DNA of 64,000 bases from Clostridia bacterium (lineage in GTDB: Bacteria > Bacillota > Clostridia > UBA1381 > UMGS1253): positions 4,730 to 68,729 of the forward strand of contig JAZSQB010000069.1 in NCBI GenBank assembly GCA_045537695.1, read 5' to 3'. The notes beneath the pieces were generated by a model. That model made no database searches. It was not told the origin of the DNA and saw only the letters and a program-made list of their open reading frames with translations. Below are positions 564-14,037 of the stretch, in pieces. Positions within the stretch are counted from its first letter, which is position 1. Each line of letters opens with the position of its first letter. The translations under genes were made by a program, and so were the position numbers.

Positions 564-575
564 ATCCTATCTGCG

Positions 576-998
576 TCAGCAATAAATCACCATTTCTACA
601 GTAGTTCCTACGCCGACCTCCGATTTCACTGTCATTTCATCGGTATAGTTTTTCATATTCGGAAGCCCCATGCCGGCACCGAAGCCGAGGTCTCTGGCTT
701 CCTGGCTCGCCGTAGAATACCCTTCTTTCATTGCAAGTTCTACGTCCGCAATGCCGGGTCCCTTATCAGAGAGCACGATTCGGATTGTGTCCGGGTCTAT
801 ATACACATCCGCTACGCCGCCGTCCGCATGAATTACCATGTTGATTTCGCCTTCATACATAGCAATTGCCGCTCGACGAATCACAGCCGGATCAAACCCG
901 AGCTGGTTGAGTGTTTTCTTCACCTTGCCGGAAGCTGCGCCGGCATCCACAAAATTATTACCGTCAATATTGAATTGCAATTTAATGGTTTCTGCCAT
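576..998 (-). CDS. HATPase_c-only ATP-binding protein (anti-sigma-factor / Ser-kinase-like)
   Basis: 140-aa ORF. N-box-like and G-box-like segments (DKGPGI, GFGAGMGLPN). No dimerisation/His-phosphotransfer domain. Confidence 0.7.
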   Translation of the reverse strand: MAETIKLQFNIDGNNFVDAGAASGKVKKTLNQLGFDPAVIRRAAIAMYEGEINMVIHADGGVADVYIDPDTIRIVLSDKGPGIADVELAMKEGYSTASQEARDLGFGAGMGLPNMKNYTDEMTVKSEVGVGTTVEMVIYC

Positions 999-1019
999 AA
1001 TACGGTTGCCTCCCGTCGG

Positions 1020-1364
1020 TTATTTTCGCGGTACCAAGCCCGCCGCATACAATTCGCCACACGCTACATACATCGGCTTTTGTGTGCGCATCAGCACCAT
1101 ACCGCGTTCCTTGGCAAGTAAAATCATTTCTGCGCTCGGCACCTTGCCGCGCACAAAAACAATCACTTTGATATCCATCATTTCCGCCGTACGTACCACC
1201 TGCGGATTTACAAGACCGGTCAAAAGCAGCCCTTCCTCTTTTACGAACGCCAATACATCGCTCATCATATCGCTGCCGCAAGCCGTTTTGACTTCCATCT
1301 CCAGCAATTCTTCGCCGGTTTCCACAACCGCGTCCAATAATTCTTTTACTTCTTTTACTTTCAT
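1020..1364 (-). CDS. DRTGG domain-containing protein
   Basis: 114-aa ORF with LLLTGLVNPQVVRTAEMMDIKVIVFVRGK, typical of DRTGG domains. Sits in the known context next to hydrogenase-like sensor genes. Confidence 0.65.
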   Translation of the reverse strand: MKVKEVKELLDAVVETGEELLEMEVKTACGSDMMSDVLAFVKEEGLLLTGLVNPQVVRTAEMMDIKVIVFVRGKVPSAEMILLAKERGMVLMRTQKPMYVACGELYAAGLVPRK

Positions 1365-1429
1365 AGCAGTCTCCCCACTTTCGGTTTTACTTCTAATTCT
1401 TCTAACCGATATTTATATTATACCACTAT

Positions 1430-1461
1430 AAAAGAACATGCACAAGAGTTTTTTCTTGTGC
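1430..1461 (-). terminator. hairpin terminator downstream of birA
   Basis: GCACAAGA (1440-1447) pairs with TCTTGTGC (1454-1461). Followed on the minus strand by a T-rich run. Confidence 0.5.
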
Positions 1462-1485
1462 ACGTTGCATAAAAACATTGTTTAT

Positions 1486-2277
1486 TTATTGTTCTGTTCT
1501 TCTAATGGAGATTTCCGCGCTGCGCAGAACTTCCGCTTCACCGTCCGCGTAAGTTACGCACAAACCACCCTCCGCATCAATATCCGTCACAAAAGCAGCA
1601 CGACCGATTCCGTTTTGCAGTACCGTTACGTATTTACCGATGACAAAGCTTCGTGCACGGTATTCCTGCATGACATTCTTATCCGAAAGCGTATCGTACA
1701 CTGCACACAGTTCGTTTATTAATTCTGCCGCAAGCATATCGCATGACGGCACGTTGTCCGCATGTCTGTCAAGCGTGGTCACTATTTCTTTTAATTCCGC
1801 ATCAAATGCATCGTAGCCGCAGACATTGACACCGACGCCGACAATGATCGTTTTAATTTTTCCGCTTGTCGCATCCGTTACGGCTTCCGTCAATATACCG
1901 CATACTTTTTTGCCGCCGAGATACACATCGTTGACCCATTTGATTTCTGCTTTTTCACGTGCATATCCGTTCAGCACGCGGCAGACCGCAACCGCCGCAG
2001 CTGCCGTAACCAACAAAACCGCATCTGCATTGTCTTCCGCATCAAAGGCAACACTTAAATAGATACCGTTTCCCTTCGGCGAAACAAAGGTCCTGCCGAG
2101 CCGTCCCCGACCGCCGCTCTGGCTGTCGGCAAGCACCGCCGTTTTGTGCATAACCGGCTGTGTACGGCACAGAGTTTTCAAATATGTATTTGTAGAATCA
2201 ATCTCATCAAACACAGCATGCAGCGTGATATTCTTATCCAAAGCACATACAATTTTTTTCTCATCCATACCTTTCAC
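1486..2277 (-). CDS. birA: biotin--[acetyl-CoA-carboxylase] ligase (class I, no HTH)
   Basis: GRGRLGRTFVSPKGNGIYLS and KWVNDVY motifs. 263 aa. Confidence 0.85.
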   Translation of the reverse strand: MKGMDEKKIVCALDKNITLHAVFDEIDSTNTYLKTLCRTQPVMHKTAVLADSQSGGRGRLGRTFVSPKGNGIYLSVAFDAEDNADAVLLVTAAAAVAVCRVLNGYAREKAEIKWVNDVYLGGKKVCGILTEAVTDATSGKIKTIIVGVGVNVCGYDAFDAELKEIVTTLDRHADNVPSCDMLAAELINELCAVYDTLSDKNVMQEYRARSFVIGKYVTVLQNGIGRAAFVTDIDAEGGLCVTYADGEAEVLRSAEISIRRTEQ

Positions 2278-2278
2278 C

Positions 2279-2310
2279 TAAAAGAAAACGGGCGAACGTG
2301 GTTCACCCGT
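2279..2310 (-). terminator. rho-independent terminator downstream of ychF
   Basis: ACGGGCGAAC (2288-2297) pairs with GTTCACCCGT (2301-2310). TTTTCTTT follows on the minus strand. Confidence 0.6.
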
Positions 2311-2320
2311 TAAATTCAAA

Positions 2321-3412
2321 TCAGACATTGAAACGGAACAGTACAATATCTCCGTCTTTCATCACATAATCCTTGCCTTCGGAACGGACAAGCCCTTTTT
2401 CCTTTGCCGCAACCATATTGCCGCAAGCGATAAGGTCATCATAATGGATAACTTCCGCACGGATAAAGCCCTTTTCAAAATCCGAATGGATTTTACCTGC
2501 CGCCTGCGGTGCCTTTGTGCCGTTGGTAATTGTCCATGCGCGAACTTCCGGCTCACCGGCAGTCAGATAACTGATTAAGCCGAGCAACTTGTAGCTGGAC
2601 TTTACAATCTTGTCAAGGCCGGATTCTGCCATGCCCATTTCGGCAAGGAATTCCTGCTTTTCTTCCGGCTCAAGCTCTGCGATTTCTTCTTCGATTCTTG
2701 CACAAATGGCAATCACTTCCGAGCCTTCCGCATCTGCAATGCCCTTCACTTCGGCAACCATCGCGTTCTCCGATGCATCTGCCGCTTCATCTTCGGACAC
2801 ATTTGCAGCATACAGTACCGGCTTCATAGTCAGAAGCGCAACTTCGCGCATCATTTCTCTTTCTTCATCGCTGTAGTCAAGCGCACGCGCCGGCTTACCT
2901 TCTTCAAGCCCAGCCTTTACGCGCTCTAAAAGGTCGAGCTCAATCTGGAATTTCTTATCGCCCTTCAGTGCCTTTTTTACGCGGTCAATTCTGCGCTCAA
3001 TCATTTCCATATCGGCAAATACGAGCTCGAGATTGATGGTTTCAATATCACGTGCCGGACCGATGCTGCCGTCCACATGCACGATGTTGGAGTCTTCAAA
3101 GCAACGTACTACATGCACGATGGCATCCACTTCACGGATGTGGGACAGAAACTTATTTCCGAGACCTTCACCGCGGCTTGCGCCCTTTACAAGACCTGCG
3201 ATATCCACAAACTCAATCATCGCCGGCGTAACCTTCTTCGGGTTGTGCATTTTGGTAAGCACATCGAGTCTTTCATCCGGCACAGCTACGATGCCGACAT
3301 TCGGCTCAATCGTACAGAACGGATAGTTTGCAGACTCCGCGCCCGCCTGTGTAATTGCATTAAAAAGTGTGGATTTTCCGACATTCGGCAGACCAACTAT
3401 ACCGAGTTTCAT
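2321..3412 (-). CDS. ychF: redox-regulated ribosome-binding ATPase YchF
   Basis: MKLGIVGLPNVGKSTLFNA P-loop, 363 aa, C-terminal TGS-like ..KDGDIVLFRFNV. Confidence 0.95.
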   Translation of the reverse strand: MKLGIVGLPNVGKSTLFNAITQAGAESANYPFCTIEPNVGIVAVPDERLDVLTKMHNPKKVTPAMIEFVDIAGLVKGASRGEGLGNKFLSHIREVDAIVHVVRCFEDSNIVHVDGSIGPARDIETINLELVFADMEMIERRIDRVKKALKGDKKFQIELDLLERVKAGLEEGKPARALDYSDEEREMMREVALLTMKPVLYAANVSEDEAADASENAMVAEVKGIADAEGSEVIAICARIEEEIAELEPEEKQEFLAEMGMAESGLDKIVKSSYKLLGLISYLTAGEPEVRAWTITNGTKAPQAAGKIHSDFEKGFIRAEVIHYDDLIACGNMVAAKEKGLVRSEGKDYVMKDGDIVLFRFNV

Positions 3413-3558
3413 ATATCTTCATTCTCCTTTATTTTCAAGGGTTTCAAATTGACCTGACACCAATTTGACACCATTACATTTTAATAGTTTCCTACTTTAC
3501 ATCAAAACATTATATCACAATACCGAATAATAGTCAATTATTCTGCGTGTTTTTGTTT
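3413..3558. repeat. att-like repeat copy A (ychF upstream arm + core CTGACACCAATTTGACACCATT + X arm)
   Basis: Core at 3454-3475. X-arm end at 3511-3558. Aligns with copies at 11114-11277 and 16863-17006. Confidence 0.8.
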
Positions 3559-3672
3559 CAATTTTGCTACGATTTTTTCATAGATTAACTTTCTTTTAAC
3601 TTTGTGAATTTATAATAATATTAAAATCAGGAAAATGTTTTGAATTTGACATAGCTCGGGAGGTGATAACAA

Positions 3673-4338
3673 GTGAAATTCAGGCATGAATACAAGCATC
3701 AAATAAACCTTGCTGATATATACGGTCTCAGGACAAGGCTTAGTGCAGTTGCAAAGTACGATCCTAATGCAGGCGAAGATGGGACATATTTTATCAAGAG
3801 CTTATATTTTGATAATTATATGGATAAAGCTCTTCGAGAAAAGATTGATGGATTGAATAAGCGAGAAAAGTTTCGTATCAGGTACTACGGAACCGACACA
3901 TCCTTTATCCGATTAGAGAAAAAAAGCAAAATAAACGGTTTATGTAATAAAGAAAGCTGCAGAATTACTGCTGAGGAATGTCAAAAGCTTATTGTCGGCG
4001 ATATTGAGTTTATGAAGGATAGTGAACATGAGCTGATACGAGAGTTATACTCTAAGATGAAATATCAGGTTCTCCGACCTAAATGTATCGTAGCATACAC
4101 CCGTGAGTGTTTTGTATATCCACCCGGGAATGTGAGGGTAACACTTGATATGAATATCTGTGGCAGTAACAATGTAAGGGAATTCCTGAATCCTGATTTG
4201 CCTTTCTTGCAGACTTATCACGAAGCAATCTTAGAAGTAAAATGGGATGAGTTTCTTCCACAGATTATTAGGGACTGTGTTCAGGTTAAATCAAGAAGAA
4301 GTGCCGCCTTCTCAAAATATGCGGCAATAAGAATATAA
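3673..4338 (+). CDS. VTC-domain (polyphosphate polymerase-like, CYTH/tunnel fold) protein
   Basis: 221 aa. MKFRHEYKH.., SLYFDN, KFRIRYYG, RLEKKSK, EVKWDE pattern typical of bacterial VTC-domain proteins. GTG start with GGGAGGTG RBS upstream. Confidence 0.75.
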   Translation: MKFRHEYKHQINLADIYGLRTRLSAVAKYDPNAGEDGTYFIKSLYFDNYMDKALREKIDGLNKREKFRIRYYGTDTSFIRLEKKSKINGLCNKESCRITAEECQKLIVGDIEFMKDSEHELIRELYSKMKYQVLRPKCIVAYTRECFVYPPGNVRVTLDMNICGSNNVREFLNPDLPFLQTYHEAILEVKWDEFLPQIIRDCVQVKSRRSAAFSKYAAIRI

Positions 4339-4367
4339 ATAAACTTAATGGAAGGAAGTAAAAAATT

Positions 4368-5039
4368 ATGACTTTTTCAGATGTATTTAAATCAAGCTTT
4401 TTATCAAACATCAATTCTTTTTCAACACTTGATGTGCTTTTAGCACTTGGACTTTCCTTTGTTTTGGGACTGTTTATCTTTTTTATTTATAAGAAAACCT
4501 ATCAGGGTGTTATGTATTCCGACTCTTTTGGTGTATCACTTATTGCGATGTCAATGATTACAAGCCTTGTTATTATTGCGGTAACATCAAATGTTGTGTT
4601 GTCACTTGGTATGGTCGGTGCTCTTTCTATCGTTCGTTTCAGAACTGCAATTAAAGAGCCTATGGACATTGCATTTTTATTTTGGTCAATAGCAGTTGGT
4701 ATCGTTCTCGGTGCAGGACTTCTTCCTCTTGCAATTATCGGCTCGGTTATTATCGGAATCATTATCGTAGTTTTCTCAACAAGAAAAATCGGTGATATTC
4801 CTTATATCCTTGTTGTAAACTGCGAAAGCGAAGAAACAGAAAATGAAGCATACGAACTTATTAAAGAAGAAGCAAAGAAAAGCCTTTTGAAATCAAAATC
4901 AATAAATAAATTAGGTGTTGAGCTTACATATGAAGTACGCATCAAAGATGATAACACAGGTTTTGTAAATAAAATCTCAGCTTGCAAAGGTGTAACAAAT
5001 GCAGTTTTAGTTTCCTATAACGGCGAATATATGTCGTAA
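4368..5039 (+). CDS. DUF4956 domain membrane protein
   Basis: 223 aa. About 4-5 hydrophobic helices. LSIVRFRTAIKEPMDIAFLFWSIAVGI signature. Soluble C-terminal tail. Confidence 0.75.
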   Translation: MTFSDVFKSSFLSNINSFSTLDVLLALGLSFVLGLFIFFIYKKTYQGVMYSDSFGVSLIAMSMITSLVIIAVTSNVVLSLGMVGALSIVRFRTAIKEPMDIAFLFWSIAVGIVLGAGLLPLAIIGSVIIGIIIVVFSTRKIGDIPYILVVNCESEETENEAYELIKEEAKKSLLKSKSINKLGVELTYEVRIKDDNTGFVNKISACKGVTNAVLVSYNGEYMS

Positions 5040-5057
5040 GATGAAAGGAGACTTAAA

Positions 5058-5627
5058 ATGCTGAAAAAAGTAATTCCGATAGTCCTTATGCTATGCTTGT
5101 TATTTAGTATAAGCGTAATGGCTGAAAATGAAAATCCGGTAAGTGAAGAAACTATACCCGAAGTATCACAGCAGATGCCGCAAGGTGCCGAGGAACGCCC
5201 ACAAGGCGGTCGTGGTAATATGGGTATGCCACCATCAGACGATATGCAAGGAAGAACTCCGCCGAATATGCCGAGCGGAGAGATGCCATCCGAAGGTATG
5301 AACAGAGGTCAAAGACCTTCAGGTAATTTTACTCCTCCACAGAACAACGATACAAATAATAACGCCGAAGCTACAACGCCTCAAGACGGTGATACGTCAG
5401 CGGAAAATTCGCAAATTCCAAATGGTAATCATCAGTTTGGCGGTCAGATGCCCGGCGGTATGGGCGGATTTCCCGGTAATATGCAAAACTTTAATGGGCA
5501 GACTCAGGAAGAGGTGCCTATGACATTTTTAGGCTTTGTTAAAACATATTCTACTCCTATAACTTCTGTAATTCTTTTAGCGTTGGCATTTGTTTTTGTT
5601 GTTTTTTACAGAAGAAAAAATTATTGA
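5058..5627 (+). CDS. secreted, C-terminally membrane-anchored low-complexity (Met/Pro/Gly/Asn/Gln-rich) protein
   Basis: Signal peptide MLKKVIPIVLMLCLLFSISVMA. About 130 aa disordered with MP and GG(F/M)GG motifs. C-terminal TM ITSVILLALAFVFVVFYRRKNY. Confidence 0.6.
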   Translation: MLKKVIPIVLMLCLLFSISVMAENENPVSEETIPEVSQQMPQGAEERPQGGRGNMGMPPSDDMQGRTPPNMPSGEMPSEGMNRGQRPSGNFTPPQNNDTNNNAEATTPQDGDTSAENSQIPNGNHQFGGQMPGGMGGFPGNMQNFNGQTQEEVPMTFLGFVKTYSTPITSVILLALAFVFVVFYRRKNY

Positions 5628-5675
5628 TATATTGAATGCCAACTAAATCTTGAAGAAAAGGAGGGTGAATATCAT

Positions 5676-7346
5676 ATGCTATCAAGTAAATATATTTCAA
5701 AAATAACGATTATACTTGTATCTGTTGTTTTGATTTTATGCGTTCTTGCAATGACTTTTTATGATAAGCTGTTACCTGTTGTAAATGATATGGGTTACAG
5801 TATGGAATATCAGGACAAGCTCTTTGATACAAGCAATATTATTGATATAAATATCGTTATGGATGAGACACAGTGGAATGAAATGCTCCAAAATGCAAGG
5901 CAGGAACAATATTATGAATGTGATGTTGTGATAAACGGAACTACTTTTAGGCAGGTCGGAATCAGACCAAAAGGAAATACAAGTCTTTCATCCATTGCAA
6001 GCGACCCAGACAATAACAGATATAGTTTTAAACTTGAATTTGACCAATTCGTTGACGGGCAGACTTGTTTCGGACTTGATAAATTAGCATTAAATAATAG
6101 CTATGCTGACACCACTAATATGAAGGAAGCAATCATTTATGATATGTTTCAGTTTTTAGATGCAGATGCTTCTCTTTACAACTATGCTAAGATTTCTGTA
6201 AATAATGAATATTGGGGTGTGTATCTTGCACTTGAAGCCGTTGAAGATAGTTTTATGCTACGCAATTACGGTATGGAAAAGGGATATTTATATAAGCCTG
6301 AAAATATGGGACGTGGCAATAACAATGGCGACAAAAAAGCAGAGGGCAATAATTTTCATGCACCGCCCGAAGGTGGATTTAAAATGCCGGAGAATTTTGA
6401 AAATGGCGCTCAAAACAGACCTCAAATGCCAAACCTTGAAACAAATACTCAAAACGAATCTGCACAAGGAGAAAGAAATCAATTCCCTAATGGTGGATTT
6501 GGCGGCGGCGAAAGAGCCGGACGTGGTGGATTCTTCGGTGGTATGGGTGGCGGAAGTAATTTGAATTATACCGATGATAATTTAGATAGTTATCAGACAA
6601 TATGGAATGGTGAGGTTACTGACAGTACGAAATCAGACCACAAGAGAGTTGTTGATGCACTTAAGAATGTTCACGAAAAAAATAATATTGAAAAATATAT
6701 TGATGTTGACCAAGTATTAAAGTATATGGCGGTTCATAACTTTTCTGTCAATGACGATAGTTTAAGCGGTTCTATGGCTCATAACTATTATCTGTATGAA
6801 GCAAATGGTCAAATCAGCATTTTGCCGTGGGATTACAACCTTGCTTTTGGCGGAATGCATCGTGCTGACGGAACAACCGTTATCAATGAACCTATTGACG
6901 ACTTATGGCAAGGAACAAAGCTTTTGGATTTTGTTTTAGAAAATGAAGAATATAAGGCTCGTTATCACGAGTATTACAATAAACTCGTGAACGAATATCT
7001 GCATGGCGGCAAATTTGAAGAAACATATAACAGAATTACCGGTCAGATAGATGAGCTTGTAAAAACTGATCCGAACAGTATGTATACCTATGAGGAATAT
7101 ACAAAAGGTATAGAAGTTTTATATGATACAGTAATGCTCCGTGCTGAAAGTATTAAAGGTCAACTTAACGGAACCATCCCGTCAACATCAGAAGGTCAGA
7201 AAGCAGATTCTTCAAAGCTTGTTGATGCATCACATCTAAATCTTTCCGATTTGGGACAGTTTAGAATGGGCGGTTTTGGTGGAAATCGAAATAACGGTGA
7301 ATGGGAAATGCCGGAAAGAAATAATCAGAACGTATCAAACGAGTAA
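5676..7346 (+). CDS. CotH family protein (atypical kinase fold), N-terminal membrane anchor
   Basis: 556 aa. FRQVGIRPKGNTS, KLEFDQF, LNNSYADTTNMKEAI, NEYWGVYLALEAVE. Carries a G/N/F/M-rich insert (about aa 205-295). Confidence 0.8.
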   Translation: MLSSKYISKITIILVSVVLILCVLAMTFYDKLLPVVNDMGYSMEYQDKLFDTSNIIDINIVMDETQWNEMLQNARQEQYYECDVVINGTTFRQVGIRPKGNTSLSSIASDPDNNRYSFKLEFDQFVDGQTCFGLDKLALNNSYADTTNMKEAIIYDMFQFLDADASLYNYAKISVNNEYWGVYLALEAVEDSFMLRNYGMEKGYLYKPENMGRGNNNGDKKAEGNNFHAPPEGGFKMPENFENGAQNRPQMPNLETNTQNESAQGERNQFPNGGFGGGERAGRGGFFGGMGGGSNLNYTDDNLDSYQTIWNGEVTDSTKSDHKRVVDALKNVHEKNNIEKYIDVDQVLKYMAVHNFSVNDDSLSGSMAHNYYLYEANGQISILPWDYNLAFGGMHRADGTTVINEPIDDLWQGTKLLDFVLENEEYKARYHEYYNKLVNEYLHGGKFEETYNRITGQIDELVKTDPNSMYTYEEYTKGIEVLYDTVMLRAESIKGQLNGTIPSTSEGQKADSSKLVDASHLNLSDLGQFRMGGFGGNRNNGEWEMPERNNQNVSNE

Positions 7347-7352
7347 ATTCAT

Positions 7353-7379
7353 AAGGTGTGGCGAAGTTCGTCACACCTT
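7353..7379 (+). terminator. possible hairpin after the CotH gene
   Basis: AAGGTGTG (7353-7360) pairs with CACACCTT (7372-7379). Weak T-run. Confidence 0.4.
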
Positions 7380-7461
7380 GAATATTATATAGAAAATGTT
7401 TGGGTTTCTTGTAATTTGAGCTATAATATGTTATAATTGGTTATGCAAAAGAGGTGAAATT

Positions 7462-8133
7462 ATGCGACTTTTGGTTGTTGAAGATGAAAAGCATCTTAAT
7501 AAAACACTAACGGAAAGACTGACAAAAATCGGTTATACCGTTGACAGTTGCTTTGATGGCGAGGATGCTTTGTACTATATAGAAAACACACAATATGACG
7601 GGATTATACTTGATGTTATGATGCCGAAGATTAATGGCTTTGATGTTCTTCGAATAATGCGTGAAAAGAAAATATTAACTCCTGTTTTGATGCTCACGGC
7701 GAAGGATTCGGATGAAGATATAATAATGGGACTTGATACCGGAGCAAATGATTATCTTACAAAACCATTTTCCTTTGACATCCTCTGTGCAAGAATCAGG
7801 GCGATGCTCCGAGTAAAAGAAAATATTACGGGAAGTGTGCTTGAAATTGCGGATTTGAGCATAGATACAACCACAAGACTTGTAAAGCGTGGAGATACAG
7901 TAATTGAGCTTTCGTCAAAGGAATACTCTGTACTTGAATACCTTATGCGAAATAAAGGCATTATCGTATCAAAAGAAAAGATTGAAGAAAATATTTGGAA
8001 CTATGAATACGAGGGTTCGAGCGATGTTATAAAGGTATATATCCACCACCTGCGTAAAAAGATTGATGATAACTACGAGGAAAAATTGCTCCATACCATA
8101 AAAAATGTGGGGTATGTGATAAAGGAAGATTAA
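7462..8133 (+). CDS. OmpR-family response regulator
   Basis: MRLLVVEDE.. receiver domain, DVMMPKINGF, winged-helix C-terminus (VYIHHLRKKID). Confidence 0.9.
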   Translation: MRLLVVEDEKHLNKTLTERLTKIGYTVDSCFDGEDALYYIENTQYDGIILDVMMPKINGFDVLRIMREKKILTPVLMLTAKDSDEDIIMGLDTGANDYLTKPFSFDILCARIRAMLRVKENITGSVLEIADLSIDTTTRLVKRGDTVIELSSKEYSVLEYLMRNKGIIVSKEKIEENIWNYEYEGSSDVIKVYIHHLRKKIDDNYEEKLLHTIKNVGYVIKED

Positions 8134-8134
8134 G

Positions 8135-9484
8135 ATGAAAAAGCCTACTTCTATAAAAACTAGAATAACAATATGGTACACAACACTTATGTTTGTACTT
8201 GTATTAGTTGTGCTTTCTTTAGTTGGCGGACTTTCTTATCAACTTTCCATAGACAGTATTGAAAAAGATGTTATTCTTCAGGTTACACAGGTGACTGAAA
8301 AGCTATCCAAAAGACAGCCCGGTGTATTTGAAATAGTTGAAAATAAAGAAGAATTTAAAAATGTATCCATTTATGAGATTGGCGGGAAATATCTTGTCGG
8401 GCAGTATAATTACGATGTTGTAAACATCCCGTTTGAAGAAGGTATTCCCCGAAGAGAAAATATAGACGGGAAAGATTATATCGTTTATGATACACGCACT
8501 CCGGGACCCCCCGGGATGCGTGGCGGCTTTTGGATAAGAGGTGTGGAATCGGTTAATTCTACGATGCTTTTGGGACGTTCTGCGATTATAATAATGCTTA
8601 TTTTAATACCGCTTATCCTATTTTTAACAGCACTTGGCGGATATTATATTACTAAAAGAGCATTTCGACCTGTAAACAATATTACAAAAACTGCAAATGA
8701 TATTTCTGCACAAAAGGATATTTCACGACGAATTGAAATATCTCCCGATTCAAAAGAAGATGAACTTCATCACTTGTCAGTTACTCTTAATAAAATGCTT
8801 GATAAAATTGAAAACCTTATCAAGCAGGAAAAGCAGTTTACTTCGGATGCTTCTCACGAACTAAGAACACCAATAAGCGTTATTCTTGCACAAGGCGAAT
8901 ATCTTTTGGATATTGCAAAGGATGAAAAAGAAAAAGAACTTGCTCAGACAATAGTTGATAAATCAAAACAGGTTTCAAAGCTTGTATCAAGACTTTTGCT
9001 CCTTGCAAGAATAGACCAAAACAGACAAAAATTCAATAAGGAAAAGGTTGACCTCGGTGTGATTATTGATGTTGCAGTTGACAGTATGAAAGAATTGGCA
9101 GCACAGAAAGAAATTCTGCTTTTCTCAAATGTAGCCGAAGGTATTATTGTGGATGCAGATGAACCATTGCTTCTATCTGCAATTACAAATCTTATCAGCA
9201 ACGGAATTAAGTACGGCAAAGAGTCCGGTCATGTATCTGTATCAGCTTCAAAGATTGGTGACAGAACAGAAATCATAGTTGCAGATAACGGCGTAGGAAT
9301 ATCAGGAGAAAACATTGATAAGATATGGACTCGCTTCTATCGTGTTGATGATGTCCGCAATGACGAATACGGAAGCAGTGGATTAGGTCTTTCAATGGTG
9401 AAAAGTATAATCGAACTACACGGTGGAGAGATTACTGTAAAAAGCAATATCGGTCAGGGAACAGAATTCAGAATTATGTTATAA
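8135..9484 (+). CDS. sensor histidine kinase (2 TM, HAMP, HisKA, HATPase_c)
   Basis: H-box FTSDASHELRTP. N-box NLISNGIKYG. G-boxes DNGVGI and GSSGLGLSMV. Confidence 0.9.
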   Translation: MKKPTSIKTRITIWYTTLMFVLVLVVLSLVGGLSYQLSIDSIEKDVILQVTQVTEKLSKRQPGVFEIVENKEEFKNVSIYEIGGKYLVGQYNYDVVNIPFEEGIPRRENIDGKDYIVYDTRTPGPPGMRGGFWIRGVESVNSTMLLGRSAIIIMLILIPLILFLTALGGYYITKRAFRPVNNITKTANDISAQKDISRRIEISPDSKEDELHHLSVTLNKMLDKIENLIKQEKQFTSDASHELRTPISVILAQGEYLLDIAKDEKEKELAQTIVDKSKQVSKLVSRLLLLARIDQNRQKFNKEKVDLGVIIDVAVDSMKELAAQKEILLFSNVAEGIIVDADEPLLLSAITNLISNGIKYGKESGHVSVSASKIGDRTEIIVADNGVGISGENIDKIWTRFYRVDDVRNDEYGSSGLGLSMVKSIIELHGGEITVKSNIGQGTEFRIML

Positions 9485-9642
9485 ATGTAGAATTTGTTTA
9501 AATAAGTTTTTATCTAAAAAGAAATTTTACAATATAAACAAACAGAGTCCCCGAGAATTTTGAACAGAACCAGTAAAAACGGACAATGACAAAAAAGACC
9601 TCCTATGGTAGAATAAAATAAACTACCATAGGAGGATTTTTT

Positions 9643-9978
9643 ATGCCGAGAAGTTACAGACATATGAAAGATTATGAATTAGAAATATTGGAGTTAAAAG
9701 CAGAAGGAAAGACCAATCGTGAAATATGCGAAAAGTTTGGTTTTGAAATGAAACAAATCAAGAATTTTATCAATAGATACAACAAAAATCAAAGGAAGAT
9801 AGCGGCAGGGATTTCAATTAAACGAAAAGGCAGACCGCTAAAAAACTATGTTGTTAGCGAACAAGAAAAAGCTGCAGAATTAAGATATATTCTTGCTCGT
9901 AAAGATGCAAAGATTAGAACATTAGAAATGGAAAATGAACTGATGCGGGATTTTCTCTCGCTCACAGAAAGGAAGTGA
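9643..9978 (+). CDS. IS3-family transposase OrfA (HTH)
   Basis: 111 aa with an HTH then a leucine-zipper-like tail. RBS AGGAGG upstream. Confidence 0.85.
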   Translation: MPRSYRHMKDYELEILELKAEGKTNREICEKFGFEMKQIKNFINRYNKNQRKIAAGISIKRKGRPLKNYVVSEQEKAAELRYILARKDAKIRTLEMENELMRDFLSLTERK

Positions 9979-10829
9979 GAGCAAGGGTAAAATATATGGT
10001 TATCTATCGTCATAAGGAAAAGTATTCGATTAGTGAGATGTGTAGATTTTTTGATGTATCAAGAAGTGGTTATTACAGTTATGTATCCCGTATGGAATTA
10101 CCAGCAAAAGATTTGCCTTTAGCTGAGAAGATAATGGAATGTCAAGAAAAATGTGGCAAAACTTATGGCTATCGTAGAGTACATATATGGCTTGAAAGAC
10201 AAGGAATACATCACAATCCAAAAACAATACTTCGAGTAATGCAGAAATACAACATGTTATCTGATGTCAGAAGAAAGAAATATCGTAATTATGGAGAGAG
10301 TTTACACCGCTACCCAAATTTGCTAAATAGAGATTTCAACGCAGAAAGACCAAATCAAAAATGGGTTACAGATATTTCATATATTAAAACTTATCAAGGA
10401 ACCTTGTATTTATCTGTAATTAGGGATTTATACGACAACAGTATTATTGCATATAAGATGGGAACAGAACAAAACACAAACCTTGTACTCTCAACAATTA
10501 GAGAGGCAAGGAAAAGAGAAAAGGTCACTACAGAGCTGCAACTCCATAGTGACCAAGGCTTTCAGTATACTTCACACGCGTACTTTAAGCTAACTAAATC
10601 ATACAACATTACGCCGTCAATGTCAAGAAAAGGTAATCCATACGATAATGCTTTAGCCGAAAATTTCTTCTCTATTCTTAAAACAGAGTGTATTTATCGG
10701 ACAAAGATTCAAACATACGATGACGCACGGCAGCTAATAGATGAATACATATATTTTTATAACAATGAAAGAATTCAATTAAAAACAAAACTGACACCGT
10801 ATGAAAAACGATGTCAGTATGTTGCATGA
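9975..10829 (+). CDS. IS3-family transposase OrfB (DDE integrase core), probably made as an OrfAB fusion by -1 frameshift
   Basis: WVTDISY, HSDQGFQYTS, NALAENFFSILKTE. The -1 frame is open from 9939. Confidence 0.85.
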   Translation: MRARVKYMVIYRHKEKYSISEMCRFFDVSRSGYYSYVSRMELPAKDLPLAEKIMECQEKCGKTYGYRRVHIWLERQGIHHNPKTILRVMQKYNMLSDVRRKKYRNYGESLHRYPNLLNRDFNAERPNQKWVTDISYIKTYQGTLYLSVIRDLYDNSIIAYKMGTEQNTNLVLSTIREARKREKVTTELQLHSDQGFQYTSHAYFKLTKSYNITPSMSRKGNPYDNALAENFFSILKTECIYRTKIQTYDDARQLIDEYIYFYNNERIQLKTKLTPYEKRCQYVA

Positions 10830-10930
10830 TTATTTGATAATTACTACCGTAGTAGTCTTTTTTGTGCTGTCTGCACAAAATGGTGCAGTTCATTTTTCTC
10901 GGGGACTTTTATCATAATTAAATATATTTT

Positions 10931-10988
10931 TGTGTCAAACTCTTTAAATAGTCTTTTATACTCCCTGACACCAATCCTGACACCAATT
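10931..10988. repeat. att-like repeat copy B1 (Y arm + core variant CTGACACCAATCCTGACACCAATT)
   Basis: Y arm TGTGTCAAACTCTTTAAATAGTCTT.. matches 16863-16896. Core at 10965-10988. Confidence 0.7.
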
Positions 10989-11113
10989 TTTTATGAAATA
11001 TATAGTGTTATACGGGAATATATAGAATTCAGCTTTTGTGAAACCCCCTTGTATATAGCCATTTAGAAAGCTTTATAAGGATATATAGACTTATAGAAAA
11101 AAGTACATGAGTT

Positions 11114-11130
11114 ACTATACCTAATTTCAT
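11114..11130 (-). pseudogene. relic of a ychF 5' end (codons 1-6, MKLGIV)
   Basis: Minus strand ATGAAATTAGGTATAGT versus the genuine ATGAAACTCGGTATAGT at 3412-3396 (15/17 identical). Same upstream RBS block. Similarity ends after codon 6. Confidence 0.55.
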
Positions 11131-11277
11131 AAGTTTTAAATCTCCTTTATTTTCAAGGGTTTCAGAATTGGTCTGACACCAATTTGACACCATTATAATT
11201 TTATTGTTGATAAATTTTATACTAAATAATCATATCACAATGTTGGATAATAGTCAATTATTCTGCGTGTTTTTGTT
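11114..11277. repeat. att-like repeat copy B2 (relic ychF start + upstream arm + core + X arm)
   Basis: 24/24 and 22/22 identical blocks with copy A. Last 31 nt of the X arm are identical to copy A. Confidence 0.8.
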
Positions 11278-11425
11278 CTGATTTTTGTGTTTCTGATTGA
11301 GAAATGTTATAAAACGTACTTTTTAGATGTTAAATAGTTTGTGAGTAAGATTATACCTTAAACCGCACCTCAGACGGTAGTGGATTAATTACAGATATGA
11401 CTGCATGCCTTTTAACGAGCGAAAA

Positions 11426-12304
11426 TTAATTTTTATAATGAATATTTTTATATTCACGAGGAGACATACCCATTATTTTATTAAAATTACGGTTAAAAGT
11501 AGAAAAATCATTATATCCGCACAGTCCGTAAATGGCGGTGATTTTATAGCCTTTTTTTATATATGAAGTTGCCGCCTTTATACGGCATGTGTTTAAGTAA
11601 TCATTAAATGAATGACCTGTTGTTTTAAAAAACAGTGCACAGAAATTGCTCTTTGACATAGCGGACTTCTTCGAAATTTCGTTTAATGTAATTTTATCTG
11701 CAAAATTATTTTCTATGTATTCGACGCAGTGGAGAACAAACTGTCTGTTGTCTTCAAAATGCTCTGATATATCGTGTTCATCCTTTGTGAAATACTCGCG
11801 GGCAAGCATTGTAACAAGTAACTGTGCATAGGCTTGTACCGTATCGTAATAAGCGATTGGCTTTTGGTTGAATTCTTTTAAAATGTGCGCCATTATGTTT
11901 TCAATGTAGAAAATTTCTTCAGAATTCATCAAAACTTTTGGTTTTACATATATGTCTTCGTTTGATTGCAGCGAACGAAGAAAATTTCTTGCAAGCTTGT
12001 TGGTGGTATACTGATCAAAAAACAGTTCCTCCATAAACGAAAAAGAGTAAAACACTGTGTTGTGTAACGGAGTTATGCAGTGTGTTACACCGGGCGGAAT
12101 AATAAACATATCTCCTTGCGTTAAGTGCGCTGACTCATTTTCAACATTGTGTTCAAGGCTTCCCTTTGATATATAATAAATCTGAAAATATTCGTGAGTG
12201 TGCGGTTTTTGCGCTTCTGTTACCTTGGCGAGTTTTTGAATATGAAAGTTTTCGGTGGAGTTTTCATAATAAGAAAGAACAAAATTTTTGACATCCATCA
12301 TCAT
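11426..12304 (-). CDS. AraC-family transcriptional regulator (cupin sensor + HTH)
   Basis: 292 aa. N-terminal cupin-like (HTHEYFQIYYI). C-terminal AraC HTH (GYNDFSTFNRNFNKIMGMSPREY). Confidence 0.9.
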   Translation of the reverse strand: MMMDVKNFVLSYYENSTENFHIQKLAKVTEAQKPHTHEYFQIYYISKGSLEHNVENESAHLTQGDMFIIPPGVTHCITPLHNTVFYSFSFMEELFFDQYTTNKLARNFLRSLQSNEDIYVKPKVLMNSEEIFYIENIMAHILKEFNQKPIAYYDTVQAYAQLLVTMLAREYFTKDEHDISEHFEDNRQFVLHCVEYIENNFADKITLNEISKKSAMSKSNFCALFFKTTGHSFNDYLNTCRIKAATSYIKKGYKITAIYGLCGYNDFSTFNRNFNKIMGMSPREYKNIHYKN

Positions 12305-12340
12305 TCACCTCTGTTTGCATTATAACATCCTTTTAGAATT

Positions 12341-12372
12341 AATGCAATATAAAAAAGAAAAAATGCAATATA
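12341..12372. promoter_or_regulatory. candidate operator: perfect direct repeat AATGCAATATA x2, 21 bp apart, in the divergent araC / atuA-like intergenic region
   Basis: AATGCAATATA at 12341-12351 and 12362-12372. Confidence 0.45.
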
Positions 12373-12413
12373 TATGCTTTTTGTTGTGCTAAAATTAAAA
12401 TGAGGTGATAGAT

Positions 12414-13727
12414 ATGAAAATAGTTGCATTAAACGGACTTTTAGGGTATGGGTACAGCAAAGAGGCTTTGGATGTCGCTTTTTCAGAAAAGGTTGATTAT
12501 CTTGGCGTGGATGCAGGCTCAACCGATCCCGGGCCGTATTATCTTGGAAGTGGTAAATCATTTACAGACCGCGGTGCGGTAAAAAGAGATGTATCCTTGG
12601 CTTTGCCAAAGGCATTGGAACATAAAGCGCCGTTTATCATCGGCAGTGCGGGCGGCGCAGGCAGCAGTGAACATGTTGCATGGCTGAAAGAAATCATTTT
12701 AGAGATTGCAAAAGAAAAAAAGCTTAATTTTAAATTGGGTACAATTTTAAGTGATGTATCCACTGCGTACGTACTTGAAAAATACGATAACGGTAAGTTG
12801 ATAGATATGAGTAGCGAGTTTCCTGCAGATAAAAACGCAATCCAAGACAGCGTACGTATTGTGAGTCAGATCGGTATCGCGCCGATTATAAAGCTGCTGG
12901 AAGAAAAGTGCGATGTTATTTTATGCGGACGAGCGTGCGATACGGCAATTTATGCTGCACCGTGCATATATGAAGGCTATAAAGAAGGTCTTGCTTTTCA
13001 TATGGCAAAGATTATGGAATGCGGTGCTATGTGTTCCGAGCCGGTTGCGGCGGCTGATGTTATGCAGGCGTATATGTATGACGATTACTTTGAGCTTCGT
13101 CCTGCAAATCCAATCAGAAAATGTACGGTTGACAGGGTAGCAGCACATACACTTTATGAACAATCGAATCCTTATTTAATATTTGAGCCTGATGGTGTTT
13201 GTAATCTTACAAACTCTGTGTTCACACAAGTTGACGAAAGAACGGTGAGAGTTTCCGGCTCGGTATTTGAAGAAGCGCCGGAAAAGACCTTAAAGTTGGA
13301 AGGTGTCAGATGTGCAGGTTTCAGAACAATATGCCCTGCCACAATTTATGATCCGAAAACCATAGAAAATTTTGATTTTATTGTTAATACAGTAACAGAA
13401 TTTGTTAAAGAAAATACAAAAGAGACAATGCCTGATAACAGTTATAAGCTTTTCTTTAAAACCAGCGGCGGAAAAGAAAGTTCTATGGGTGTTGTAATAG
13501 ACGTTGTAGGAAAAACACAGGAAATTGCTGATACAGTATGTGCACTGATCAGAAGCAGAATGCTTCACTGTGACTATGTAGGAAGAAAATCATCCGCAGG
13601 CAATCTTGCATTTCCATTTTCACCTTCAGATATTCACGTGGGGGCTGTTTATGAATTTTCCGTGTTCCATCTAACAAAGGTGAATTCTCTTATGGAAACG
13701 GCAAAAATTCTGATCGAGGAGGTTTAA
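12414..13727 (+). CDS. AtuA-like (DUF1446, acyclic terpene utilisation family) protein
   Basis: About 437 aa. N-terminal ..NGLLGYGYS..LGVDAGSTDPGPYYLGSG typical of DUF1446. ATG at 12414 has GAGGTG 8 nt upstream (the track start 12405 is a GTG). Confidence 0.7.
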   Translation: MKIVALNGLLGYGYSKEALDVAFSEKVDYLGVDAGSTDPGPYYLGSGKSFTDRGAVKRDVSLALPKALEHKAPFIIGSAGGAGSSEHVAWLKEIILEIAKEKKLNFKLGTILSDVSTAYVLEKYDNGKLIDMSSEFPADKNAIQDSVRIVSQIGIAPIIKLLEEKCDVILCGRACDTAIYAAPCIYEGYKEGLAFHMAKIMECGAMCSEPVAAADVMQAYMYDDYFELRPANPIRKCTVDRVAAHTLYEQSNPYLIFEPDGVCNLTNSVFTQVDERTVRVSGSVFEEAPEKTLKLEGVRCAGFRTICPATIYDPKTIENFDFIVNTVTEFVKENTKETMPDNSYKLFFKTSGGKESSMGVVIDVVGKTQEIADTVCALIRSRMLHCDYVGRKSSAGNLAFPFSPSDIHVGAVYEFSVFHLTKVNSLMETAKILIEEV

Positions 13728-13728
13728 A

Positions 13729-14028
13729 ATGAAAAAACTGATTGATTACACAAAAATTTTAAGAAGCAAAAATGCAGGTCCTCTTTTTATTACATTTGAT
13801 TTGATTTTCCATACAAAAGAAGATATGCAGTATGTAGAACAAAAGCTTACAAAAGCAGACATTGTAAAAGCTTATGATGTTGCCGAGGAGAAAATAGATA
13901 TTATCGCCTACGGTGTTGTAAATTCCATTAAAATAACTTTCCCAAGAAAAAATATAAGCGGCAGTCTTGCAGATAACGATATTTACGGATGTCAGCAACA
14001 TATGCCGCTGGCAAATATTGAAATATAG
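13729..14028 (+). CDS. DUF4387 domain protein (usual partner of AtuA-like proteins)
   Basis: 99 aa. ..LRSKNAGPLFITFDLIF.. motif. Starts 1 nt after the previous stop. Confidence 0.65.
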   Translation: MKKLIDYTKILRSKNAGPLFITFDLIFHTKEDMQYVEQKLTKADIVKAYDVAEEKIDIIAYGVVNSIKITFPRKNISGSLADNDIYGCQQHMPLANIEI

Positions 14029-14037
14029 CGGGGGATT

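Follow-up and report, generated by a model that had tools for sequence, protein, structure and literature searches.

Gene organization of the locus

Six genes lie on the + strand at positions 3673-9484 of the window, the whole 64-kb stretch of DNA analysed here. ORF calling gave gaps of 29, 18, 48, 115, and 1 nt between them, and each gene is preceded by a Shine-Dalgarno-like sequence. The genes and two elements between them are as follows.

3673-4338, + strand: VTC-domain protein, 221 aa, GTG start (Pfam VTC, E 7e-41)
4368-5039, + strand: DUF4956 membrane protein, 223 aa (Pfam DUF4956, E 8e-11)
5058-5627, + strand: low-complexity anchored protein, 189 aa
5676-7346, + strand: CotH-family atypical kinase, 556 aa (Pfam CotH, E 2.5e-60)
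7352-7380, + strand: hairpin 3' of cotH, 13 pairs, weak T tail
7409-7437, + strand: promoter-like site 5' of the regulator gene, TTGTAA-17-TATAAT with an extended -10 TG (consensus match alone)
7462-8133, + strand: OmpR/PhoB-family response regulator, 223 aa (Pfam Response_reg and Trans_reg_C)
8135-9484, + strand: sensor histidine kinase, 449 aa (Pfam HAMP, HisKA, and HATPase_c)

The Pfam matches bear out the family assignments (VTC, DUF4956, CotH, and the regulator/kinase pair) of an earlier sequence-only reading of this DNA, and the ORF, gap, and GC data confirm its description of tightly spaced, same-strand genes of low GC content followed by a regulator/kinase pair. The GC content of the cassette genes was 34-43% and their GC3 26-37%, compared with 48% in the flanks (1-3400 and 17000-64000); the low-GC stretch continues beyond 9484, to ~17000. 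Given the hairpin and the promoter-like site at the junction, the cassette likely comprises two transcription units, a four-gene operon and then the regulator/kinase pair, with the hairpin possibly serving as an attenuating terminator between them.

Horizontal acquisition and boundaries

Repeated and inserted elements around the genes, none of them assigned a strand, were located as follows.

3396-3565: direct repeat copy A, left boundary; 5' end of ychF (start codon at 3412, - strand), RBS, and promoter region
9546-10907: terminator hairpin of the histidine kinase gene, arms 9546-9560 and 10893-10907, split by the IS3-family element
~9561-10892: IS3-family element with inverted repeats; orfA 9643-9978, orfB 9975-10829 (Pfam HTH and rve)
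11114-11285: direct repeat copy B, right boundary; remnant of the ychF start, RBS, and promoter

Copy A matches 11114-11285 at 81% identity over 172 nt and 16897-17007 at 78% identity over 112 nt. The ychF repeats aligned with their counterparts in the relatives L005 and L007, and in L007 a downstream repeat copy likewise follows the kinase gene. The cassette is ~90% identical to that of a relative, whereas ychF is just ~68% identical. These flanking repeats and the contrast in identity support the earlier proposal that the cassette was acquired horizontally as one unit. The unit itself thus held up, but its placement at 3673-9484 did not, since the sequence between the ~170-bp direct repeats extends it to about 3566-11113, a span that includes an IS3 element inserted later. 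The IS3 element was considered as the vehicle of the cassette and rejected, being a later insertion within the kinase terminator that is missing in L007, where positions 4349-6469 correspond to 7442-9561 of the window and positions 6466-6727 to 10894-11152.

Co-occurrence across genomes

We surveyed gene neighbourhoods in 80 species-representative genomes, with the evaluable ones (76, 65, or 43) as denominators. The VTC gene was directly followed by the DUF4956 gene in 72/76 species genomes (median gap, 27 nt), and the gene after this pair encoded CotH (45) or a Cthe_2159 beta-helix protein (11) in 56/65. Strong co-occurrence was therefore found well beyond the window genome, and this attempt to refute the earlier reading failed; the gene set is a real, recurrent unit. 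The next gene of the operon after the VTC-DUF4956 pair almost always codes for an extracytoplasmic protein, with 9-30 nt between the genes, and an acidic, low-complexity, TM-anchored segment is encoded either by a separate gene, as in the window, or as a fusion to the third protein. In 24 of the 43 fully evaluable loci, the cassette has a two-component system next to it; GGDEF-EAL proteins were also seen as neighbours of the trio, and plasmid exopolysaccharide clusters as another context. The trio occurs in non-sporulating streptococci and bifidobacteria, and also in methanogenic archaea.

Co-occurrence of the trio is already known: cotH, polyphosphate polymerase, and DUF4956 genes have been described as accessory to the pel operons of Gram-positive bacteria (Whitfield et al., bioRxiv 768473; bioRxiv 2024.04.20.589940), those of S. 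intermedius being SIR_1592-1594 (bioRxiv 2024.04.20.589940). There, as here, genes of the three families lie side by side in one orientation; secretion is predicted for CotH and a cytoplasmic location for the VTC protein, which has catalytic residues. The trio was not found outside pel operons in that study (bioRxiv 2024.04.20.589940), whereas no pel or glycosyltransferase gene adjoins it at the present locus. The cassette also differs in having its own two-component system, promoter box, and extra anchored low-complexity protein, and in that CotH can be swapped for Cthe_2159; it is a stand-alone variant, linked to a two-component system, of the pel accessory module. VTC, DUF4956, and CotH also occur together on accessory or mobile DNA in C. 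perfringens NELoc-2 and in Planococcus and Pseudobutyrivibrio plasmid loci, where glycosyltransferases, HEAT-repeat proteins, deacetylases, or sigma/anti-sigma factors replace the two-component system.

The DUF4956 membrane protein and the destination of the putative polymer

The DUF4956 protein is polytopic according to hydropathy, and its AF2 model has five predicted helices and a C-terminal ACT-like domain. R90, R92, and K96 are invariant, as is a basic loop, SIVRFRTAIKEP, where the confidence of the AF2 monomer is at its lowest. Identity among homologues is 57-65% for this protein versus 53-60% for the VTC enzyme, the membrane protein thus being the better conserved. Similarity to MgtC was detected under the cut-offs of both Pfam (MgtC, E 0.018) and NCBIfam (MgtC/SapB, E 1.6e-6), and homologues carry a YhiD-like label in one source. 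Foldseek matches were the MgtC C-domain 2LQJ, NikR, and ACT folds; in the PDB fold search, matches were limited to the C-terminal ACT-like domain, every one with E >0.001. The protein shares with the MgtC/SapB/YhiD family a polytopic NH2-terminal domain followed by an ACT-like domain, as well as weak but specific sequence similarity over both parts, but it scores far under the family cut-offs (27.9 versus 214 bits; 15.8 versus 31.4 bits) and is set apart by an invariant motif of its own and by its obligate pairing with VTC. By sequence and model, it is a distant relative of MgtC/SapB whose C-terminal part is an ACT-like domain.

Homology to the Vtc1/Vtc3/Vtc4 channel was also considered and was rejected in favour of the MgtC-like match and fold. 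As in the yeast VTC complex, a membrane protein with conserved basic residues on its cytoplasmic side is genetically coupled to the enzyme; however, the yeast subunit is of the three-helix Vtc1 type, whereas the cassette partner is MgtC-like, with five helices and an ACT-like domain. The earlier suggestion of a split synthase-translocase analogue therefore stays conditional: the genetic coupling of the two genes speaks for it, but it gains nothing from homology to the Vtc1/Vtc4 membrane domain.

Our preferred reading, to which we assign a probability of about 45%, is that of a self-contained, horizontally mobile envelope cassette of gut Clostridia that would make polyphosphate (polyP) and hand it over for surface proteins. 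MgtC-family proteins are known as regulators rather than channels, and the likeness of DUF4956 to MgtC/SapB in sequence and architecture, together with the YhiD-like label, would also suit a system in which polyP is synthesized in the cytoplasm and stays there. DUF4956 would then be an MgtC-like regulator or membrane tether, with the ACT-like domain as its ligand sensor, and would adjust enzyme activity or the supply of ATP/Pi, and the surface proteins would be co-regulated without contacting the polymer. Cytoplasmic polyP has been proposed for S. intermedius, since other parts of the VTC complex are missing, and MgtC is reported to affect ATP and phosphate homeostasis (bioRxiv 2024.04.20.589940). 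The gene for an extracytoplasmic protein is nevertheless almost always next in the operon, and the invariant basic juxtamembrane loops of DUF4956 suit the handling of a polyanion. In addition, cytoplasmic polyP in Firmicutes is normally made by PPK enzymes. We consider retention in the cytoplasm somewhat unlikely.

The VTC enzyme

The VTC protein is soluble, with no hydrophobic segment in its hydropathy profile. A profile of 70 VTC homologues matched Vtc4 (E 1e-9), and the top Foldseek matches of the AF2 model (pLDDT 96.4) were Vtc4 structures 3G3Q/3G3R (E 3e-15, TM 0.72-0.75), with hydrolytic TTM/CYTH enzymes trailing (E 4e-8 or weaker, TM 0.5-0.6). R68, R70, and E188, which are invariant, correspond to R264, R266, and E426 of Vtc4, respectively, and the profile paired K84, K93, R144, and R155 with K281, K294, R361, and R373. 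Each of the seven equivalents is either invariant or conserved at a level of 90% or more, and the conserved basic tunnel residues expected from the earlier reading are thus present. A Vtc4 mutant carrying R264A/R266A/E426N is catalytically dead (PMC9911596). The cassette enzyme therefore has the catalytic family, the fold, and the polymerase-essential residues in common with the eukaryotic VTC complex, differing as a free 221-aa protein that lacks an SPX sensor and a fused membrane domain. K215 presumably corresponds to Vtc4 K458, judging from the common FSK(Y/F) motif and from Hothorn et al. 2009.

In bacterial VTC members, strand 1 contains a Glu (E6, within R-H-E-x-K) that is invariant, at a position that is probably Thr in Vtc4. 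Such a difference might be expected if the protein were not a polymerase but a tripolyphosphatase, an NTP phosphohydrolase, or a maker of another phosphoanhydride, with the cassette serving envelope phosphate scavenging or signalling; most prokaryotic tunnel enzymes are hydrolytic, and the fold is common to the TTM/CYTH hydrolases YgiF, SaTTM, and thiamine triphosphatase. Given that, in both sequence and structure, Vtc4, Vtc2, and Vtc3 are distinctly nearer to the protein than any hydrolase is, and that it keeps residues whose mutation abolishes Vtc4 polymerase activity, we regard this possibility as improbable and the 221-aa triphosphate tunnel metalloenzyme as a putative polyphosphate polymerase. 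The literature searched yielded no experimental function for any bacterial VTC/DUF4956 member, in agreement with the earlier statement on this point.

The two-component system and promoter box

One further element lies upstream of the VTC gene.

3585-3603, + strand: direct-repeat box TTAACTTT-CTT-TTAACTTT, 7 nt 5' of TATAAT (3611-3616) and overlapping the -35 position

This box is the single match within the 64-kb window. Its relaxed pattern occurs exactly once in each of the loci L001-L012, in every case a short distance 5' of the VTC gene, and is absent from 78 other loci scanned; the box is thereby conserved in 12/12 members of the window's clade. We consider it a candidate site for binding by the OmpR-type regulator. 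The idea of dedicated control by the two-component system is thus favoured by the conserved box but does not extend to a single co-inherited partner: the systems next to the cassette fall into at least four non-orthologous groups in different clades, and orthologues of the present kinase (66-90% identity) were found only in the closest clade. Whereas yeast VTC is controlled by inositol pyrophosphate, control of the cassette, whose activity and translocation are putative, would be transcriptional.

The histidine kinase has two TM segments around an extracytoplasmic loop of ~100 aa, followed by HAMP, HisKA, and HATPase domains. The best NCBIfam matches of the regulator (225 bits against a cut-off of 279) and the kinase are the heavy-metal CztR/SilR/CopR and CztRS/SilRS/CopRS subfamilies. 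PolyP is a metal chelator, and the tails of the anchored proteins are acidic and Met-containing, with a 3.6-fold enrichment of the MP dipeptide, which would suit a CopRS/CusRS-like system inducing surface polyP and Met-rich, cation-sequestering anchored proteins for the handling of metals such as copper. Both matches are, however, under the curated cut-offs and limited to the cytoplasmic core, PnpS and PhoR score nearly equally, the sensor loop has no cluster of His, Cys, or Met, the tail motif is [QEN]MP[ED] rather than MxxM, and other clades have non-orthologous systems or GGDEF-EAL proteins. A metal-handling role therefore appears quite improbable.

Outward-facing proteins

The 189-aa protein is predicted to be a type I membrane protein, with a signal-like segment at 1-24 and a TM segment at 163-186 followed by RRKNY in its hydropathy profile. 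Its acidic, low-complexity ectodomain is rich in P, G, N, Q, and M and contains [QEN]MP[ED] motifs and a conserved segment, FLGFVKTYSTPITSV. The protein matched no family in Pfam or NCBIfam and has homologues only in the closest clade, and in other clades the same build of tail and TM segment is fused to the COOH-terminus of CotH or Cthe_2159. Direct binding of polyP by the acidic tails is not expected, a point against the export mechanism.

The cassette CotH matched B. cereus CotH (5JD9) and has a single NH2-terminal hydrophobic signal anchor, a low-complexity insert (~210-295), and a low-complexity COOH-terminus. The catalytic residues D361 and D386 correspond to D228 and D251 of B. subtilis CotH and show at least 93% conservation across 54 cassette CotHs. 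An NH2-terminal anchor is present in 53/54 CotHs and 13/13 Cthe_2159 proteins. Given this anchor, the kinase domain is predicted to be an extracellular ectodomain rather than to reside in the mother-cell cytoplasm, and the hydropathy and anchor survey support the earlier view that both CotH and the 189-aa protein face outward. Because Cthe_2159 can replace CotH, the kinase is dispensable to the cassette.

A role in spore-coat modification, also raised earlier, is hardly credible: CotH family membership, the intact catalytic Asp residues, and a low-complexity neighbour recall B. subtilis CotH, which phosphorylates its adjacent low-complexity substrates CotG and CotB, and would leave the other cassette genes incidental, but the cassette CotH is signal-anchored with its kinase domain predicted outside the cell, a non-kinase beta-helix takes its place in 11 genomes, the trio is present in the non-sporulating streptococci and bifidobacteria and in methanogens, and the neighbour is an acidic, TM-anchored protein instead of a Ser/Lys/Arg-rich coat protein.

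Proposed function

For the envelope cassette that we prefer, a polyP synthase-exporter mechanism is plausible on the basis of sequence and structure models. An extracytoplasmic cue would be sensed by the histidine kinase, and the phosphorylated regulator would bind the TTAACYTT-N3-TTAACYTT box, which stands in place of a -35 element, and switch on the four-gene operon. The VTC enzyme would dock at the invariant basic cytoplasmic loops of a DUF4956 oligomer and polymerise phosphate from ATP, and the chain would be passed across or into the membrane, with the anchored ectoproteins binding, using, or organising polyP at the cell surface. Surface polyP may serve as matrix or in surface charge and cation handling, roles that would be in keeping with the linkage of the trio to exopolysaccharide loci elsewhere.

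Gene organisation and distribution of the cassette

The ORF calls confirmed the six + strand genes proposed in the sequence-only reading, at the positions that it had assigned to them.

Genes of the cassette and features between them
3673–4338, + strand, VTC-domain protein
4368–5039, + strand, DUF4956 membrane protein
5058–5627, + strand, 189-aa protein
5676–7346, + strand, CotH
7352–7380, hairpin between cotH and the regulator gene
7409–7437, promoter-like site between cotH and the regulator gene
7462–8133, + strand, OmpR-type regulator
8135–9484, + strand, histidine kinase

The intergenic gaps are, in gene order, 29, 18, 48, 115 and 1 nt, and each of the six genes is preceded by a Shine-Dalgarno-like sequence. 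Given the hairpin and promoter-like site downstream of cotH, the six genes are probably split into two transcription units. The GC content of the cassette genes is 34–43%, compared with 48% in the window outside 3400–17000; that the genes have low GC had been noticed before.

Relatives of the VTC gene were sought with an alignment of 14 VTC sequences in one genome per GTDB species, and at least 595 were found. The best 80 of these loci (53–95% identity) were analysed by ORF calling and iterative HMM labelling. Among these 80, DUF4956 lay directly 3' of VTC in 72 of 76 evaluable loci (median gap 27 nt), and the third gene encoded CotH in 45 and a Cthe_2159 protein (PF14262) in 11 of 65 evaluable loci (56 of 65 together), with one or the other nearby but not directly adjacent in four more. 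The genes thus co-occur well beyond this genome. A regulator/kinase pair adjoined the cassette in 24 of 43 fully evaluable loci, whether downstream, upstream or divergent. No further neighbour family recurred in the best 80 loci, so that the flanks of the cassette are otherwise unrelated. The cassette is a real, conserved and mobile unit.

The hosts of the 80 loci were mostly Oscillospiraceae, Lachnospiraceae and other Clostridia of gut or rumen. VTC-DUF4956-CotH sets were also present in two methanogens, Methanimicrococcus stummii (L033), the complete genome of which carries two sets side by side, and a Methanocorpusculum MAG (L061); their VTC proteins are 54–57% identical to that of the window, and these sets point to a transfer between domains among gut anaerobes. 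One MAG (JAZNGA01) carries paralogous cassettes on different contigs (L009 and L010), with VTC identities to the window of 95% and 88%.

Relation to known gene sets

The genes cotH, polyphosphate polymerase, DUF4956 and DUF4832 have been described, for streptococci, clostridia and bifidobacteria, as pel accessory genes that are contiguous with the operon (Whitfield et al., bioRxiv 768473). In a preprint on S. intermedius, the three proteins of the cotH-VTC-DUF4956 trio were described from models, polyphosphate (polyP) was proposed to be cytoplasmic, and the trio was not found outside pel operons (bioRxiv 2024.04.20.589940). The trio of the window resembles this accessory module in being contiguous but differs from it in not being contiguous with pelDEA(DA)FG. 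The neighbours of the structural genes are instead ychF, the two-component system, an IS3 element, an AraC gene and an AtuA-type operon, and no link to pel was seen in this clade. A GGDEF-EAL protein is encoded directly after CotH in a few genomes (L027, 5208–7925; L036, 9913–11865; similarly in L074), an arrangement that echoes the diguanylate cyclase/phosphodiesterase reported beside the trio in bifidobacterial pel loci. The trio also occurs on two plasmids within exopolysaccharide-type clusters (L089, Pseudobutyrivibrio pNP95; L090, Planococcus), one with glycosyltransferase, acyl-transferase and pyruvyl-transferase genes beside it and the other with genes for HEAT-repeat proteins and glycosyltransferases, similarly to C. 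perfringens NELoc-2, which carries VTC and CotH genes.

The synthesis of polyP in prokaryotes is ascribed to PPK enzymes, with VTC being treated as the eukaryotic type (e.g. PMC12526157). We found no experimental study of a bacterial VTC protein or DUF4956 protein in the literature searched, in agreement with the earlier statement that the pair has no experimentally defined function. The gene set as such has already been noticed in the literature; the cassette represents a variant of it that stands alone and is linked to a two-component system.

Insertion beside ychF

Features of the insertion site
3396–3565, direct repeat copy A, ychF 5'-end region on one side of the cassette
~9561–10892 (window 9546–10907), IS3-family element inside the loop of the terminator hairpin of the kinase gene
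11114–11285, direct repeat copy B on the other side of the cassette, 81% identical to copy A
11426–16798, second low-GC segment: AraC regulator (− strand), then AtuA-like, DUF4387, M20 peptidase and a fumarate/tartrate hydratase-like pair
16897–17007, third, partial repeat copy at the end of the whole low-GC stretch

The direct repeat of ~170 bp consists of the first 17–20 nt of ychF together with its ribosome-binding site and promoter, and the three copies of this region are 78–81% identical. The same two copies surround the cassette of a relative (L007). Nucleotide identity between the window and another relative (L005) is 65–72% in ychF and rises to 85–94% from ~3505 through the cassette, and the cassette nearest to that of the window by nucleotide identity (L009, 89.7%) is located in an unrelated context. 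These observations together indicate that the cassette was exchanged after divergence of the hosts, at the same landing site. The horizontal acquisition proposed earlier for this lineage is therefore upheld at the sequence level by the flanking repeats, the jump in identity relative to L005 and a GC content ~10 points below that of the flanks. Low GC was rejected as a general trait of such cassettes: over 59 loci (58 other genomes and the window), the median difference between cassette and flanks was +0.5 points, with the window cassette ~10 points lower.

No integrase is present within the cassette, and homology-facilitated insertion through the ychF 5' end and the repeat is one possible route. 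The IS3 element, the orfA and orfB of which overlap by 4 nt and which ends in TGAAC...GTTCA, was rejected as the vehicle because L007 has the cassette without it; we read the element as a later insertion than the cassette. A megablast search of 3400–9600 against plasmids gave no match, and an exact-sequence look-up of the window YchF for strains with an empty site returned no record. The three repeat copies divide the low-GC stretch into two parts, the VTC cassette and the AraC-to-fumarase segment, a layout suggestive of successive insertions at a single hotspot next to ychF, without an integrase being present. The second segment, with its class I, two-subunit hydratase-like pair, looks like a small catabolic operon.

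The VTC enzyme

The VTC protein matched Pfam PF09359 at 140.7 bits (cut-off 23; E 7e-41; profile positions 1–228 of 235). As a single sequence it barely matched solved structures (Vtc2, E 0.006), and a profile built from 70 diverse homologues matched the catalytic domain of yeast Vtc4 (E 1e-9). We obtained a very confident structure model with AlphaFold2 (pLDDT 96.4), the closed beta-barrel tunnel fold of which was closest to Vtc4. In a Foldseek search with this model, the top 13 PDB matches were all Vtc4, Vtc2 or Vtc3 (E 3e-15 to 1e-11; TM 0.64–0.75), with the hydrolytic tunnel (TTM) enzymes ranking below them (E 4e-8 or weaker).

Window VTC residues and Vtc4 equivalents (70-sequence profile alignment)
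R68 / R70: Vtc4 R264 / R266
K84: Vtc4 K281
K93: Vtc4 K294
Y142 / R144: Vtc4 Y359 / R361
R155: Vtc4 R373
E188: Vtc4 E426

Each of these residues is either invariant or conserved in at least 90% of the 70 homologues. Given this equivalence and the Vtc-type fold, the enzyme does not lack the basic tunnel residues on which the sequence-only reading depended, with R68, R70, K84, K93, R144, R155 and E188 all aligning to Vtc4. The C-terminus reads F213-S214-K215-Y216, with S214 invariant and K215 present in at least 90% of the same 70 homologues. Given that the HMM alignment to Vtc4 ended before this segment, we take S214 and K215 to correspond to Vtc4 S457 and K458 only by matching of the motif F-S-K-Y to F-S-K-F. 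Hothorn and colleagues are said to have reported in 2009 that the catalytic Lys458 of Vtc4 is missing from the inactive Vtc2 and Vtc3. The inactive form of Vtc4 used in cryo-EM structure work was R264A/R266A/E426N (PMC9911596).

The 221-aa protein is a VTC domain alone, with no hydrophobic segment, and thus differs from the eukaryotic VTC complex in having neither an SPX domain nor a fused Vtc1-type C-terminal membrane domain. With clustering at 50% identity, the VTC-domain family accounts for 4,344 clusters (E 0.001 or better) in a library that covers public genomes and metagenomes. One subgroup of 418–496 aa (P0222, P0235, P0244, P0248 and P0260) has an N-terminal extension of 200–270 aa that is disordered, strongly basic and K/P/A/Q-rich, with no family match and no membrane segment; these ~480-aa proteins were thus rejected as membrane-domain fusions. 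An apparent VTC-DUF4956 fusion (P0187) was likewise rejected as Rosetta-stone evidence. In this protein, a truncated VTC part runs in mid-domain into DUF4956 and a Cthe_2159-like end, so that the protein is probably an assembly or deletion artefact.

The DUF4956 membrane partner

DUF4956 matched Pfam PF16316 at 42.4 bits (cut-off 30.6; E 8e-11). It scored 15.8 bits against Pfam MgtC (cut-off 31.4; E 0.018), the only other Pfam match, and 27.9 bits against the NCBIfam MgtC/SapB family NF007431 (cut-off 214; E 1.6e-6; residues 70–209). Given that these scores fall below the curated cut-offs, DUF4956 is a distant relative rather than a member of MgtC/SapB, to which its similarity appears weak but specific. 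The AlphaFold2 model (pLDDT 74.6) showed five helices and a C-terminal beta-alpha-beta-beta-alpha-beta domain, for which Foldseek returned the C-domain of M. tuberculosis MgtC (2LQJ), NikR and ACT folds, all with E >0.001. A polytopic N-domain followed by an ACT-like C-terminal domain is thus common to DUF4956 and MgtC/SapB. Beyond the ACT-like domain, nothing significant was found among PDB folds, and a relationship to the Vtc1 channel is unsupported by this search.

DUF4956 is better conserved than the VTC enzyme in the same genomes (57–65% versus 53–60% identity). The stretch LSLGMVGALSIVRFRTAIKEPxD, including R90, R92 and K96, is invariant, and the motif SLGMVGALSIVRFRTAIKEPxD occupies residues 79–100 (window 4602–4667). 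By the positive-inside rule, the invariant loop and a YKKT loop are predicted to face the cytoplasm. Confidence in the monomer model is lowest at this motif (pLDDT <50, residues 80–95), which may take shape solely in an oligomer or together with VTC.

Outward-facing proteins

The CotH protein matched Pfam PF08757 at 205 bits (E 2.5e-60). In an alignment to B. cereus CotH (5JD9), D361 and D386 take the positions of B. subtilis D228 and D251 and are predicted to be the two catalytic and metal-binding Asp residues; both, together with an HNY motif, show at least 93% conservation across 54 CotH proteins from cassettes. A hydrophobic N-terminal signal anchor is present in 53 of these 54, so that the kinase domain is predicted to lie outside the membrane, as had been supposed. 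The spore-coat role that had also been suggested is unlikely, given this anchor and the occurrence of the protein in non-sporulating taxa and archaea.

CotH and Cthe_2159 are exchanged between close relatives (L001, 86% VTC identity, Cthe_2159; L002, 82%, CotH), and Cthe_2159 stands in place of CotH in L001, L014, L040, L042, L045, L051, L055, L063, L067, L068, L075, L077 and L085. The replacing proteins share the N-terminal anchor of CotH and, often, an acidic tail and transmembrane end. Cellulose and polygalacturonic acid are the reported ligands of Cthe_2159, a beta-helix of the PL9-like type (bioRxiv 401869).

The 189-aa protein, which has no Pfam family match, begins with a signal peptide, followed by an ectodomain that is acidic and rich in P/G/N/Q/M, a conserved FLGFVKTYSTPITSV segment, a transmembrane helix and an RRKNY tail, a build consistent with the outward orientation proposed for it. 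Recognisable homologues occur in the closest clade only, with the gene before or after the third gene. In other clades, the same build is found as a C-terminal extension (acidic G/S/D/P/E/N/M-rich tail, transmembrane helix, basic end) in ~33 of 54 CotH and 9 of 13 Cthe_2159 proteins. The dipeptide MP was seen 92 times in 42 such tails compared with 25.5 expected from shuffling, mostly as [QEN]MP[ED]. Given that this build recurs either fused or separate, the acidic tail is a conserved part of the system.

Two-component system and promoter box

Pfam identified an OmpR-type receiver with a winged-helix domain in the regulator and HAMP-HisKA-HATPase domains in the kinase. The best NCBIfam subfamily was for both proteins the heavy-metal CztRS/SilRS/CopRS type, with the regulator at 225 bits (cut-off 279) and the kinase at 212 bits (cut-off 292). 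The matches span the cytoplasmic core only, with PnpS and PhoR scoring close behind, and a heavy-metal CopRS/CusRS/CztRS assignment was rejected on the basis of the cut-offs. Orthologues of the window kinase (66–90% identity) are restricted to the closest clade; kinases beside other cassettes are only 20–26% identical to it and form at least four groups, which indicates that the two-component link arose repeatedly. The two-component control proposed earlier is supported in that a conserved box lies upstream of VTC, but the two-component system is not a single co-inherited partner.

A direct-repeat box, TTAACTTT-CTT-TTAACTTT (3585–3603), lies upstream of VTC and ends 7 nt before TATAAT (3611–3616). 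A relaxed form of this pattern occurs once in each of L001–L012, always just upstream of VTC, even in unrelated surrounding DNA, and in none of 78 other loci. Activated promoters of the PhoB/OmpR type classically have two direct repeats with 11-bp spacing in place of the −35 element, and the box, being laid out in this way, is a candidate site for the regulator.

Proposed mechanism and implications

The mechanism that we infer, and the best supported, is a polyP synthase-exporter. The idea of a bacterial split analogue of a synthase-translocase remains a proposal, with the membrane partner as an analogue and not a homologue of the eukaryotic channel. The tunnel enzyme would pass polyP to the cell surface by way of an MgtC-like protein in oligomeric form; there the anchored CotH kinase could take the exported polymer as phosphoryl donor instead of scarce external ATP or, alternatively, the Cthe_2159 beta-helix could bind it; an envelope-sensing two-component system would turn on the whole. 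To this full chain, as a compact VTC-type synthase-exporter of bacteria and some methanogens with a membrane part unrelated to the eukaryotic channel, we assign a probability of roughly one in five.

Should the polymer stay intracellular or the enzyme prove to be a hydrolase, the finding would reduce to an ordinary accessory operon. Being small, the cassette, with its four structural genes, a switch of its own and a defined promoter box, lends itself to direct testing by heterologous expression. If the proposal is true, gut anaerobes and methanogens would have a second, envelope-directed route of polyP production, given the tight link of the enzyme with a conserved membrane partner and outward-facing proteins, and the MgtC-like DUF4956 family would gain its first concrete function.
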